A stretch of DNA of 34,611 bases from a virus. The position numbers and the translations under genes are program-made. The stretch lies in the UHGV virus genome UHGV-0165227. One strand, 5' to 3'. The notes beneath the pieces were generated by a model. That model saw only the letters and a program-made list of their open reading frames with translations. It was not told the DNA's origin and did not search any database. Of this stretch, positions 336 through 26,685 are shown one piece after another; positions within the stretch are counted from its first letter, which is position 1; every line of letters begins with the position of its first letter.

Positions 336-962
336 TCAATGAATCCATTCCTCGCCGCGCAGTTTTGCCAGCATTGGCTGAGCGTTCTTTACGACAAAAT
401 TGTTGGTATCAAGATTCTTCATTTCACGAAGAAGTGATTTCTTGGTTTCTTCTGACATGTAGCGAGTCTCATATGCAATATCGTAAATCCTTCCTGAAAG
501 CTCAGAACCAATTTGCTTCATTCCTGGGTAGATGTGTTTGCACATTTGTTGACTCTTCTCCATCCACAATTGTAAGTAGCAGAGATTAACCAGTTCTTCG
601 TCAGTAAACTGTTTTGCAATCGGTGAGCATTCTGCCTGCCGATCCAAAATATCCAGCACCCAGCGGCGGAACTCTTTGGCTACCTGAGTGCGAGCAAACA
701 TCGCGATTAGGTGGGCACCGCGTAGTGAGAAAACACGCACTTTTTTGCGATAATTTCCTGAGGTACTCACTTCGAGTACCTGAGTCATTCCGGCGCTAAA
801 CTCATCGCTATACTTGTTATAAATCATTGTTACTGCACGACTATTTGCGTATTTAAGTGCAGATGCAATATTAGATGATGTAAACCAAACACCATGCATA
901 TCACGGGTGGGCACCAATTCAACTCCGTGGAAGTTATAATCTGATTTTGCTACAATATTCAT
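336..962 (-). CDS. ant: Antirepressor Ant (Bro-N/AntA-type N-terminal domain)
   Basis: Immediately downstream of arc on the same strand; AAGGAAA RBS before ATG at 962; Bro-N-like N-terminal pattern; upstream in-frame part of the track ORF lacks an RBS. Confidence 0.6.
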   Translation of the reverse strand: MNIVAKSDYNFHGVELVPTRDMHGVWFTSSNIASALKYANSRAVTMIYNKYSDEFSAGMTQVLEVSTSGNYRKKVRVFSLRGAHLIAMFARTQVAKEFRRWVLDILDRQAECSPIAKQFTDEELVNLCYLQLWMEKSQQMCKHIYPGMKQIGSELSGRIYDIAYETRYMSEETKKSLLREMKNLDTNNFVVKNAQPMLAKLRGEEWIH

Positions 963-1037
963 GTTAGTTTCCTTGCATACGGTTACTGACATAGAGGCCC
1001 GGTTTGTGTTCACGCACTGCCGGGCTTCACTATTTTT
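948..1037 (+). ncRNA. Candidate sar-like antisense RNA covering the ant ribosome-binding site
   Basis: Extended -10 TGCTACAAT (948-956) inside ant 5' end on the opposite strand; hairpin GCCCGG (997-1002) / CCGGGC (1020-1025) followed by U-rich tract 1026-1037. Confidence 0.35.
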
Positions 1038-1209
1038 ACTGGGCATTAGCTCTTTCCTCTCTCAGGCTTTTAGCCAGTCGCTGCACAATCGCAGAGTTGA
1101 TAGAAATTCCATCCATTTCAGCAACACGTCTAATCTCCTCCTTCATTCGCGCTGGCAAACGAAGCTGGAAACTTTGACTTTTACGACCTGTGTAAAGCAC
1201 ATCTTTCAT
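1036..1209 (-). CDS. arc: Arc-like ribbon-helix-helix repressor
   Basis: GGAGG RBS before ATG at 1209; N-terminal beta-strand plus helices motif typical of Arc/MetJ family; directly upstream of ant. Confidence 0.65.
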   Translation of the reverse strand: MKDVLYTGRKSQSFQLRLPARMKEEIRRVAEMDGISINSAIVQRLAKSLREERANAQ

Positions 1210-1237
1210 AAGTAATCCTCCCACAATGATACCAACT

Positions 1238-1251
1238 TGGTTCTAGAACCA
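1238..1251. promoter_or_regulatory. Perfect 14-bp palindrome TGGTTCTAGAACCA in the arc-mnt divergent control region; candidate operator
   Basis: Exact self-complementary 14-mer between divergent arc (start 1209) and mnt (start 1321); flanking CCAACTTGG / CAAGTTGG inverted repeat. Confidence 0.55.
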
Positions 1252-1320
1252 ATTTAACACCATTTATTTTGATGTCAAGTTGGTGCTATTGTTTAGCGAA
1301 CATCTTTACGTTGAGGTCAT

Positions 1321-1641
1321 ATGAGCAAGTTCCCTAGTCATGAAATGGATAGGTTCAATATCAGGCTTCCTGCAGGAATGCGGGATGCTATAGCTGAACG
1401 AGCCAAACGTAACGGCAGATCAATGAACTCAGAGATTGTTCAGATACTGGAAGATGCCTTGAATGCAGAAAATACACTCGGGGAAATAGCAGATAAAATC
1501 AACAGCGTCTCGGTTCCGCTAAATGTTGATGCGCTAGTTCAACTTCAAGCCCAGGTTATCGCCATGCAAAAAGAAATACAGGAAAAGTTCAGAGAGCAGA
1601 ACGAAAAGTTGAGAGAACTGCTAAACAAAAAAACCACCTGA
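1321..1641 (+). CDS. mnt: Mnt-like ribbon-helix-helix repressor
   Basis: N-terminal FNIRLP...RNGRSMNSEIVQ motif matches P22 Mnt/Arc family; GAGGT RBS; divergent from arc-ant. Confidence 0.75.
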   Translation: MSKFPSHEMDRFNIRLPAGMRDAIAERAKRNGRSMNSEIVQILEDALNAENTLGEIADKINSVSVPLNVDALVQLQAQVIAMQKEIQEKFREQNEKLRELLNKKTT

Positions 1642-2328: not shown

Positions 2329-2556
2329 GTGAAGCGATGGTTCCTCATAATTACTGTTTTCGCGATCATTTACACTATTTTCCCTGCATTAAAAGCACCA
2401 ATGCAAATAATTTCGCTAGCAATAATTGCAATTGGTGCTTTCATTGCAGTAGCCGTACTTGTGTTTAAGGTTTTAAAGTTTTTAGTTTGGCTATCAAAAG
2501 ATGATGGATGCAAAGTTCATCAAGAAAAAGAAGGCAAAATAACCAAAGTTGACTAA
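2329..2556 (+). CDS. Small two-helix membrane protein (75 aa), GTG start
   Basis: Strong RBS TAAGGAGGT (2316-2324) 4 nt before GTG 2329; two hydrophobic segments; AT-rich; convergent with gp16. Confidence 0.4.
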   Translation: MKRWFLIITVFAIIYTIFPALKAPMQIISLAIIAIGAFIAVAVLVFKVLKFLVWLSKDDGCKVHQEKEGKITKVD

Positions 2557-4676
2557 CTGTCACTAGCGAGCCATGTAATAATCCCCGTGCGGGCAATGGT
2601 TTTTGCTTCATCTGTTGATAAGGTTTTCTCCCATCTCTTAAATGCCCCAGATTGCATCAGTTTCCTTTCTATTACGCGTCTCACTTCTGCTCTGTCTACT
2701 GGTGCGTTTTGCAGGCGAAATAGCATTGATTTAAACTCAGGAGAAGACAGTAGAGCATCAGCAGCCTTTATCCTGCTTGTTTTCCCTGACATCAATGCTG
2801 ACGTTATCACCCCTGTTGCACCTACACCAGGAAGACCAGATAAGCTTGTAATACCTTCCGCCGCAGCAGCTTTTGAGGCTATTCCATAAATTTTTGCGAG
2901 ACTACCCTTTTCTTTCAGAAAGTTATTAACTTGCTGATCCACAAGGCTGCTAGCATACTGCTTACCAGTATTGAGTCTATTCATAGCCTTGGCTGCTTGA
3001 TAAATCGTATCAAGGCGCTTTGATGCATCTGTGCCAATAGCATCACGGAGAGCCTTCATATTGGCCCCATTGCGTGACATTCCGTTATACCATTTTACAA
3101 ATCCATCAACCCCTAATTGCTGGCCTGGTGATTTAGCATAGCTGGTAAATGCTTTATTCATTGAGGTGAGCGCAACTTCCTGCCGCATATCCTTTGGAAT
3201 TGACTTCATTAATTGCCTAAAGTCACCACCGTTTCCTTTTGCCATATTAACAACGGCACTTTCAACTTTTGGAATTGCTGATTGCTGAAGTTTTCTACCC
3301 AAAACGGTTACGGCATCATCTTCAATGGATTTTCGTGTTTTTACCAACTCCTTACCAAGCGTCCATAACTCCCCTGCGCCATATTTTTCTGCGACAGCCT
3401 GTTGGTCATCTGTTATAGCCGCATATAACTTTTTAAGAACACCTGTTTCTTCATCCTTGAATGGGCCAGAGCCTTTGCCAATAGCTTGCCCAACCTGCTT
3501 TCTAGCGAGATCTAAACGCCCATACGTTGGCAAGGTGTTTGGATCAAGTCGGTTCAATGTCCGCTTCATTATTGGAGATAATTCATCAATTCCACCTATA
3601 TCATCAGCAAAATCCTCTAAAAAATTCAATGTATTAGTTGCCTCAATCCGGTCTCTTACAGGAACCTTTTCGGCAATTTTGTTGTAGATGTTATCTGACT
3701 GATTTTGTAATGATGAAATGGTTTTATCAAAATTATCTGCAAGCCTGTCAGAAACCAGTTGCTTATCAAGGCTTCCCCCAAATGAAGTTATCATTTCATC
3801 AGCTTTTCTTCCTAATTCAGTAATAAAACGCTTATGCGCCTCACTAATCTCTGTTCCAGGGAGACTTGCCACTGCATTATCAAGAGCCCTGACAGCAGGA
3901 TTATTAGAGATCATGCCTGGAGTGGCATAATTTTCCAGTTCTAGCTCACGAATAGCATTTATCGCGTTAAAATCAGGATTAACTTCATCGGCGAAATCTT
4001 GAATAGCTCGTTGCCCGCCGATAAATTTATTGTCCATTGCGCCAGCAGCTTTCTTTAACGTTGCTTTAGATGATTTACTACCCATCCCTACGGATGAGCG
4101 ATAAATATCTCCGGCACTATTTTTAATTTTTCCTGCAATCTTCCCAAGCGCTGGACCAACAATCTCTGCTACAGGGCCAGCCACAGCGCCAATAGCAGCT
4201 CCAGAAGCAACATCGCTATTTGTTCCATTGGCTACAATAGCCCCTTCTCCAGCACCAAGCCCTGCGGCGGCAGCCAGCCTTGCCGCCCCTTTCGGAACCT
4301 GAGAAATAATCCCACCACCACTAACAAATGGCGCTGCTTGTCCAACAAACTCACCAACATCTTGTGCGGTTGATGGTTTTGCCGCTAACTTCTGCTGTAG
4401 AGACTGAATTGCGGCTTGCTCTTCTGGTGTCATATCCTGAAACAGGCCAACACCTTTACCAACATCCATCAATCCACTGAGAACGCCATACATAAAACGG
4501 TCGAAACCGTTAGCATTATTAACAACATTTTCCTGTCTGGAATTTTCCTCTGGCGAAACCAAAGGTGATTGCTGCTGTTCTGGTTGGGCATCAAGCACAA
4601 AACCATCAGGAAGCTGTGAGTTATCAGGCTGATTATCGAGAACAAAGCCTTCGGGTAAACCTACATCGGTTGCCAT
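2553..4676 (-). CDS. Ejection (injection) protein, P22 gp16-like
   Basis: Last gene of the ejection-protein trio by synteny (gp7, gp20, gp16); 707 aa, Gly/Ala-rich. Confidence 0.7.
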
Positions 4677-25369: not shown

Positions 25370-26230
25370 TCACCTGTCGAAAAACACGTAGCCAGTTTTC
25401 GATACGGTGATTGCGGATGATGGTTTGGATTGTGGTTGAATAGTTTCTGGCTTCTCGTCGTTCCAGCGCTGACCGTTCAGGTAGCTCGATGGTAACAACC
25501 TGTCGAATCCGAACTGCTTACCATTCCTGCATGCGATGTCTTCTGCTAGCATCGTGGCAAACTCGCTTGCCGTACCCCTGGTAGTTTTACGCCATTCCCT
25601 GAACTGTGTTCTGAATGCCGAAGCTGCGTTTTTCTTCCCGGCTTTCCGCATGCCTGCACACCAGAATATTTCCTCGAATGCCTTGTCGGTTTCTTCGTGA
25701 CGGTCAGGTGATTTTTCACACTCCGTCCGAACACTTTCGGACATAGTGTTTTTATTATTTCTTTTTTCTTTTGTAATAGTTTCTTTTGTGTGTCCCTGTT
25801 TTGGTGACAGCGCTGTCACCGTTTTGGTGACACTTTTTGTCACCAATGCAGTGACATTATCACCAGAGTAGTGACACCCTTCGATTTGCCATTCCTCGAT
25901 GTTCTTGTTAGGCCCGATTTGCTGGCCTTCGCGAAGGATAACCTTCATCGCGATAAGCTCATTCTTGGCCTTGTTTACCTTCTGTCTTGGCAGCCTGGTA
26001 ATTTGAGCTAACTGACTATCAGAGATGCGATCCATCTTTTTACCGTAGCCGTATGTTTTACGGCATATGGCGTGGGCAACCTTGCTCTGATTTTTCGTTA
26101 AATCTGCGCCGATAAGCTCTTCATACAGGGCATTTGCAAGACGGGTATAACCATCTTCAACTTCTGCCACACGACGCTCCACAGGCCGTTGTGAAGGCCT
26201 TAAATGTGTTACGGTTGCAAGATTACTCAT
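25370..26230 (-). CDS. Replication initiator, lambda O-like N-terminal domain
   Basis: GADLTK...RKTYG...MDRISDSQL...GPNKNI pattern as lambda O N-terminus; iterons inside gene. Confidence 0.7.
25749..25880. other. Candidate replication origin: GTGACA-type iterons (25797-25880) plus AT-rich tract (25749-25796) inside the O-like gene
   Basis: Perfect 18-bp palindrome GGTGACAGCGCTGTCACC (25803-25820) and at least four further GGTGACA/TGTCACC half-sites, flanked by a T/A-rich stretch. Confidence 0.55.
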
Positions 26231-26369
26231 GACCTTTCTCCTTCTGCATCAGCTTCACTTTTTCCAACTCAGCCCGGAATCGACCAGGCTGCTTGAAGCT
26301 GGACAGGAAGCGATCACGTAGTATGTGTTTGTGAATTTTGTCCTGGTAAGGACTGAGTTGTTTTGTCAT
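26223..26369 (-). CDS. Small basic hypothetical protein (48 aa) between cII and O
   Basis: AGGAG RBS 5 nt before ATG at 26369; stop overlaps O start codon. Confidence 0.3.
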
Positions 26370-26403
26370 AATGACTCCTGTGGATTGATCCAGTCTTTCT
26401 ACA

Positions 26404-26685
26404 TCAGGCCTCGAAGAATTCGCCGTTCTTCGGGGCTTTTTCTTTTGTCAGGTAATCGGCAAGCCGCTTAGTCAATTCAGCCATTTCATCGTCTTCGATT
26501 CCGTATTCCAGAACAGCAAGCATCATGCTTACCTGCGAGAAGAAACCATTCTTCCATCGGCTTACCTGATATTCAGGAACCCCCATTGCTCGAGCGAATG
26601 TCTTCTGCCCCATCAGTGCCAGTTTGTTCAGCAAGGCCGACTCGATGCGAGCCGCTTTCTTGCTTTTAGTTGCAATAGTACCCAT
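26404..26685 (-). CDS. cII: CII-like transcriptional activator
   Basis: [11 protein letters not shown]...SRWK...MLLAVLE pattern as lambda CII; position downstream of cro/nutR. Confidence 0.8.

Follow-up and report, generated by a model that had tools for sequence, protein, structure and literature searches.

A divergent homologue of the P22 sar antisense RNA predicted in the immI region of an HK620-like Escherichia coli prophage

The closest described counterpart of the element considered here is the sar RNA of phage P22, the literature on which includes the work of Liao et al. 1987 and Wu et al. 1987 (Genes Dev 1:197 and 1:204), and of Schaefer & McClure 1997 (RNA 3:141). In the P22 reference record (NC_002371), sar is annotated on the minus strand at 15021-15090, its promoter is located inside ant at 15097-15125, and the ATG of ant is found at 15091. 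The Ant protein inactivates the main repressor, and in the prophage it is probably held in check at the level of translation. P22-like phages commonly have arc, ant, and sar together, and the late promoter also reads arc-ant (PMC12111858). Reads of sar itself were detected in the small-RNA sequencing of P22 (PMC13397905).

The DNA analysed here is the UHGV virus genome UHGV-0165227, a stretch of 34,611 nucleotides that is referred to below as the window. An immI region of the P22 type occupies the left end of the window (Table 1). Within this region, arc lies upstream of ant in the same orientation, the two genes are separated by a spacer of 73 bp (963-1035), and a gene for a second, mnt-like repressor of the Arc family is divergent from arc. 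The mnt-like protein combines an Arc/ribbon-helix-helix N-terminal domain with a long, probably helical C-terminal tail. A candidate Pant is convergent with the predicted sar promoter, with about 280 bp between them. It is overlapped by an inverted repeat, the likely Arc/Mnt operator, whose centre falls between the −10 of Pant and the ribosome-binding site of arc. A literature search on the interplay of Psar and Pant returned nothing usable. Outside this region, the window consists of an HK620-like (Lederbergvirus) prophage with virion genes 97% identical to those of HK620, which is itself without the immI segment of the window. An identical immI is carried by E. coli SBF22, for which RefSeq/PGAP gives the same ant ATG and the same arc, and in that RefSeq annotation the 73-bp spacer contains nothing. 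The sequence is identical in E. coli 3CM as well.

The reading preferred here, with a probability of roughly 0.88, is that positions 928-1038 of the plus strand hold a divergent homologue of P22 sar in the immI of an HK620-like E. coli prophage. This homologue would most likely block the translation of the antirepressor Ant. As predicted from the sequence, the prophage has a complete immI circuit of the P22 type, which consists of Mnt, Arc, sar, and Ant.

Table 1. Features of the immI region at the left end of the window, ordered by position.
Feature	Position	Strand	Description
ant	336-962	-	ATG 962-960, stop at 336; 208 aa; Bro-N + P22_AR_C (Pfam)
-35-like hexamer of the predicted sar promoter	928-933	+	TGGAAG; weak; 17-bp spacing to the -10
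Extended -10 of the predicted sar promoter	948-956	+	TGCTACAAT (TG-C-TACAAT); inside ant codons 3-5
Predicted sar-like antisense RNA	963-1038	+	about 73-76 nt; 5′ end placed by comparison with P22
Stem-loop I	963-990	+	6-bp stem 963-968/985-990; loop bears anti-Shine-Dalgarno UUUCCUU (968-974)
Terminator hairpin	994-1028	+	10-bp outer stem 994-1003/1019-1028; 4-bp inner stem 1006-1009/1014-1017
Terminator tail	1029-1038	+	CACUAUUUUUA; T run 1033-1037 overlaps arc stop codon
arc	1036-1209	-	57-aa Arc-family repressor; Pfam Arc E = 8e-12; stop codon 1036-1038
Inverted repeat	1225-1264		20-nt arms, core TTGGTTCTAGAACCAA; likely Arc/Mnt operator
Candidate Pant	1251-1278	-	TTGACA-16-TAAATT with TG; 10/12 consensus matches; putative function
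mnt-like Arc-family repressor gene	1321-1641	+	106 aa; Pfam Arc E = 1.6e-20

The preliminary description of the locus had likened it to the sar arrangement of P22, and the layout indeed agrees base for base with the sar locus annotated in P22. When the sar strand is followed, P22 reads ...TTGCTATACT ATTCAT GTTGGTTTTTCTCC...ACTGAC...GAAGCCC...GGGCTTCAACTTTA, and the window reads ...TTGCTACAAT ATTCAT GTTAGTTTCCTTGC...ACTGAC...GAGGCCC...GGGCTTCACTATTTTTA. In both cases, ATTCAT comes directly after TG-n-TAnAnT, its final three bases being complementary to the ant ATG, and the next base is the G with which a 6-bp stem begins. The two sequences also agree in register at the base of the terminator. 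The extended −10 of the P22 Psar, TGCTATACT, has the same register as that of the window, and the hexamer TGGAAG occupies the position of the annotated −35 of the P22 Psar, GTGTTA, and 3/6 positions match the consensus in both hexamers.

The extended −10 reported earlier just inside ant is present in the sequence at that place. Such an element is unremarkable when it is taken alone, as the −10 pattern TGNTANAAT is not above chance, with 2 occurrences in the window and 5.1 expected. Scans for consensus promoters and terminators flagged neither the sar promoter nor its terminator, because the −35 is weak and the loop of the terminator is branched. Therefore, the case rests on the conjunction of the features and on the relatives of the element. 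Among 97 unique relatives, TAnAnT was counted at −9 to −4 from the C of CAT, positions which are not fixed by the search pattern, and its T, A, A, and T are found in 97, 96, 94, and 97 sequences, respectively. The TG of the extended −10 is less uniform, with the T in 70 and the G in 87 of the same relatives. The Ant residues encoded over the −10 vary, with Ser or Ile at codon 3 and Ile, Val, or Leu at codon 4, yet the wobble bases belonging to the −10 stay, which is the signature of a constraint at the level of the DNA and not of the protein. This is evidence that the predicted promoter is under selection as a promoter. An example of how the register is kept is phage Oslo, where the ATG slid 4 nt closer to the −10 and the stem still starts 7-8 nt past the −10.

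The fold predicted for 963-1040 has a free energy of −33.3 kcal/mol (z = −5.9), and none of 200 shuffled sequences was as stable. It contains two hairpins. The terminator hairpin had been described before as spanning 997-1025; the hairpin is real, but its extent is larger, as given in Table 1. The U-rich tract said to follow it is likewise there, in the form of the tail with its T run, and CACUA intervenes between the terminator stem and this U-tract. The second hairpin, stem-loop I at the 5′ side, was absent from the preliminary description. Because of its antisense position, the predicted RNA is complementary to the ribosome-binding site of ant. The ant Shine-Dalgarno AAGGAAA, 5 nt upstream of the ATG, is the exact complement of the anti-Shine-Dalgarno in stem-loop I. 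The earlier proposal that the complementarity includes both the ribosome-binding site and the start codon therefore stands in its first part, but probably not in the second: the register of P22 puts the 5′ end at G963, so that the Shine-Dalgarno would be covered and the AUG (960-962) would lie outside the RNA.

The relatives of the element were collected in a first sample with the loose pattern TCATRTY...GARGCC...GGGCTTCRMY, which gave at least 120 loci in IMG/VR and 92 unique transcripts from them. The sar family has at least 92 variants. The MAFFT alignment of the 92 variants mis-registered stem-loop I, and RNAalifold recovered only the terminator from it. A covariance model, R1, was seeded from a structure-anchored, N-padded alignment, and the subsequent re-alignment of the real sequences to the model (Infernal) led to the model R2, the training set of which consisted of 70 sequences, P22 sar among them, with identities below 75% to the window element. 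R2 finds 963-1038 of the plus strand at its full length (model positions 1-77 of 77) with 43.1 bits and E ~1e-7, and this is its only strong match in the 34.6-kb window. Taken as a whole, the arrangement lies far outside of what chance would give. In the direct alignment with P22 sar, 50 of the 68 aligned bases of the window RNA are identical, and many intermediate variants connect both sequences; blastn from the window region did not reach P22.

The sar family of Rfam, RF00262, gives no match in the region even at E ≤ 10 and no match across the whole window at its gathering threshold (43 bits). No other Rfam family reaches its threshold anywhere in the window either. P22 is scored by RF00262 at 97.8 bits. 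When 17 representative sar variants were considered, RF00262 reached the threshold in five, those with a terminator of the P22 type, and missed JEP4 (which is of the window type), Oslo, KP12, and others. Therefore, the failure of Rfam to recognise the element reflects a narrow seed and not a biological boundary. By these comparisons, the window element is a divergent but genuine predicted sar homologue, not a close copy. It is an ordinary, known kind of element which is missed by the current RNA databases. The loci concerned by the shortfall of RF00262 carry the identifiers L004, L009, L015, L017, L018, L021, L027, L043, L067, L070, L002, and L003. Sub-threshold matches to Rfam microRNAs were located on the operator palindrome listed in Table 1 and are regarded as chance.

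The variation within the family is accompanied by preservation of the fold. In single-sequence MFE folds, all 92 variants have stem-loop I, starting from nt 1 (from nt 5 in Oslo), and the terminator, and the anti-Shine-Dalgarno (UCCU/UCUC) lies at about nt 8-11. The five outer pairs of stem-loop I are canonical in 92/92 variants with GC/AU swaps, and at pairs 4 and 5 of this stem the seed alignment holds GC, AU, and UA swaps. Canonical pairs make up 99.9% of the pair cells in the seed alignment and 93.7% in shuffles, none of 500 of which reaches the observed value. Controls in which the alignment was slid have 30-60% canonical pair cells. The pattern used for the first family sample fixes six outer pairs of the terminator, and because of this an independent sample was drawn, comprising 80 loci selected by Arc protein homology alone. 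A full-length match was found at 79 of these 80 loci on the opposite strand, with its 3′ end at the first base after the last Arc codon. The 42 distinct sequences of this sample have 99.7% of their cells paired, a value that leans upward like the 99.9% of the seed alignment since the alignments were fitted to the structure or model, the Arc-based selection removing the pattern bias only; the slid controls and the single-sequence MFE folds are unaffected by such fitting. In the Arc-selected sample, 8 of the 14 pairs have changed on both sides of the helix, among them pairs of the terminator which had been fixed by the earlier pattern. The conservation of promoter and terminator in related immI regions, on which the preliminary description had made its proposal depend, is thus found for both, with the T, A, A, and T of the −10 kept in 94-97 of 97 relatives and the helices paired in 99.7-99.9% of cells.

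The same substitutions bear on the possibility that the spacer 963-1035 is coding. According to this explanation, Ant would begin at an upstream ATG (1046-1044) that overlaps the end of arc, and the element would be an N-terminal extension of the protein. The frame is indeed open from 1046 to 336, which would give 236 aa, the spacer is without an in-frame stop in 58 of the 92 relatives, and a form of ant overlapping arc is annotated in KP12, Oslo, and ST11-VIM1phi8.1. However, in-frame stops are found in 34 of the 92 relatives (a count less decisive than hoped), the length of the element lies between 62 and 68 nt with differences that are not divisible by three, and the substitutions keep base pairs and not codons. 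Moreover, the ATG at 962 is preceded by the good Shine-Dalgarno AAGGAAA, the PGAP and JEP4 annotations begin at the equivalent of 962, and the homologous spacer of P22 is annotated as non-coding. A longer Ant is therefore regarded as extremely improbable, and the conserved helices are attributed to the sar homologue.

The next question is which strand bears the folded molecule. Watson-Crick covariation is symmetric between the strands, and the complement of the window element folds too (−19.5 kcal/mol). Both facts would agree with hairpins whose function is in the arc-ant mRNA of the minus strand, where they might serve as an attenuator, be a site of processing, or sequester the Shine-Dalgarno, without any plus-strand RNA. 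Other properties of the family are not symmetric. In 92/92 variants, the plus strand folds more stably than the complement, with means of −28.9 vs −19.8 kcal/mol and with −33.3 vs −19.5 kcal/mol for the window element. G.U pairs are frequent: pair 1 of stem I is GU in 27 of 51 sequences, and pair 8 of the terminator is UG in 28 of 51. Such pairs would turn into A.C mismatches in the ant mRNA, which argues that the folded molecule is the plus-strand transcript. In addition, a T run follows the hairpin on the plus strand only, and the conserved −10, at its fixed distance upstream, would be left without a function if the hairpins served the mRNA. A role confined to the minus strand is accordingly judged highly improbable, and a plus-strand sar homologue remains the preferred reading.

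A sar homologue may also be present as an inactive relic, which is no longer expressed or needed in the prophage. The weak −35 and the interrupted U-tract of the window would be in line with such decay, but the Psar of P22 has an equally weak −35 and a U-tract poorer than that of the window, and sar reads are nevertheless found in P22 (PMC13397905). The window has kept its −10, both of its helices, and its tail intact, and the same holds for ant and arc. The segment 900-1060 is identical or at least 95% conserved in 71 of the 130 matching complete E. coli genomes. The loss of activity is therefore considered very improbable in comparison with a sar homologue that is still in use.

The mechanism proposed for this homologue follows that of P22. 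RNA polymerase would start at G963 and would stop in the U run at about 1035-1038, releasing an RNA of about 75 nt. Such an RNA would be fully complementary to the 5′ untranslated leader of ant, whether the leader is carried by transcripts from Pant or by read-through transcripts of the late operon. The late genes share the strand of arc-ant, e.g., the gene of the 707-aa DNA-transfer protein at 2553-4676, which makes read-through transcripts beyond the repression by Arc and Mnt plausible targets. The pairing with the leader over the Shine-Dalgarno would prevent the binding of the 30S subunit, and the duplex would perhaps be exposed to RNase III. As a result, the synthesis of Ant would be kept low where Arc or Mnt cannot repress transcription.

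Segment 900-1060 of the window has matches in 130 of 5,426 complete E. coli genomes, and the ends of these matches fall at window positions 924, 962, 992, and 1042. The matches can be divided into several classes: the whole region, ant with sar, sar with arc, sar alone, the terminator alone, and the promoter alone. Since the breaks recur at the edges of the promoter, of stem-loop I, and of the terminator, the sar gene behaves as a set of mosaic joints between different alleles of arc and ant. An example of this behaviour is Escherichia phage JEP4 (L002, 2501-2619), which shares only 924-1042 of the window, at 96% identity, whereas its arc-like gene and the body of its ant differ in sequence from those of the window. 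Such a difference in the flanking genes indicates that the RNA module was exchanged as a unit. Arc proteins that are 82-100% identical adjoin 42 different sar sequences. Stem-loop I comes in many discrete types, with at least six common 5′ arms, and so does the terminator; 34 combinations were seen, and the shuffling of the types does not follow that of arc and ant. The types of stem-loop I include those beginning with GUUAGU (window), GUUGGU (P22), GUCGAUA, and GUCAAUA. A distribution of sar over unrelated ant genes was considered and rejected, as 103 of 103 distinct Ant proteins fall in one similarity cluster; these proteins are divergent and mosaic, but related.

This pattern would fit a selection for distinct antisense specificities, similar to the incompatibility groups of plasmid copy-control RNAs, and would make the sar module more than a fixed accessory of immI. 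Such an interpretation is put forward as a doubtful one, since the shuffling of the RNA types may be merely the product of recombination at conserved joints. If it were true, it would depend on the type of sar whether the ant of a superinfecting relative is silenced by the resident prophage.

Other small RNAs resemble sar in their design. SymR of E. coli covers the ribosome-binding site of its target and has its promoter inside the target gene. With about 77 nt and two hairpins, it is likewise a cis-antisense RNA, and its likeness to the window element is one of design only. The Rfam model of SymR (RF01809) matches window positions 960-1031 with 21.2 bits and E = 0.18, which falls far short of the gathering score of 61. 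The target (symE) and the context differ, and membership in the SymR family is not supported.

A related design is that of the oop RNA of lambda and P22. Like sar, oop is a short antisense RNA, with a promoter next to the start of one gene and a terminator that extends over the end of the adjacent one; unlike sar, it is antisense to the 3′ end of cII/c1 and not to a ribosome-binding site. A candidate for an oop-like small antisense RNA is seen in the window at 26380-26449 (+), in the position of the oop promoter and terminator annotated in P22. It begins just beyond the start codon of an orf48-like gene of 48 aa (26223-26369, −) and ends with a GC-rich hairpin and a T run over the 3′ end of a cII/c1-like gene (26404-26685, −). 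The sar model R2 touches this candidate weakly (17.4 bits, E = 0.065).

Another element with a sar-like organisation is located ahead of an icd-like gene in a P4-like island on the chromosome of E. coli MLI106K2 (L128, 1451-1550). Downstream of the extended −10 TGGTATGAT, which lies within the first codons of this gene, there is a stretch with two RNA-like hairpins (−38.9 kcal/mol, z = −6.5), and its terminator is 86% identical to window 992-1042. Similar matches of 51 bp occur in about 50 E. coli genomes. The element scores 22.8 bits with the sar model (E = 0.002) and 34.8 bits with the Rfam SymR model (E = 9e-5), the latter below the gathering score of 61. A possible role is that of an antisense regulator of the icd-like gene which has escaped annotation. 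As a doubtful possibility, the element hints at a wider superfamily of antisense RNAs that abut start codons, which would also touch SymR.

For the specialist, the value of these observations consists of the annotation gap and the natural variants, and the significance for the window itself is small. RF00262 sees about a third of the sampled variants, and RefSeq therefore leaves sar genes like that of the window unannotated; a broader model such as R2 would fix this gap. Deposited genomes, including Oslo (L003, 1146-1310), L004, and L006, have an upstream ATG assigned to ant, which labels the sar spacer as coding. The catalogue of variants represents natural compensatory mutants, which can serve for studying the recognition of the target by sar.

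The comparison with P22 defines both the common plan and the differences. As in P22, the predicted RNA of the window is encoded in the arc-ant spacer of immI on the strand opposite both genes. Its promoter lies within the first codons of ant, and the RNA would begin at the base after the start codon. As in P22, it would have a 5′ stem-loop with an anti-Shine-Dalgarno and a terminator that ends at the stop codon of arc, with a total length of about 70-76 nt. The two differ in sequence in the loop of stem-loop I and in the inner half of the terminator, which has 35 nt with a branched top in the window, compared with 32 nt and a tetraloop in P22. The proteins of the region differ in size as well: Ant of the window, with its Bro-N and P22_AR_C domains, has 208 aa vs 300 aa in P22, and the Mnt-like protein has 106 aa vs the 83 aa encoded by a 252-bp CDS in P22.
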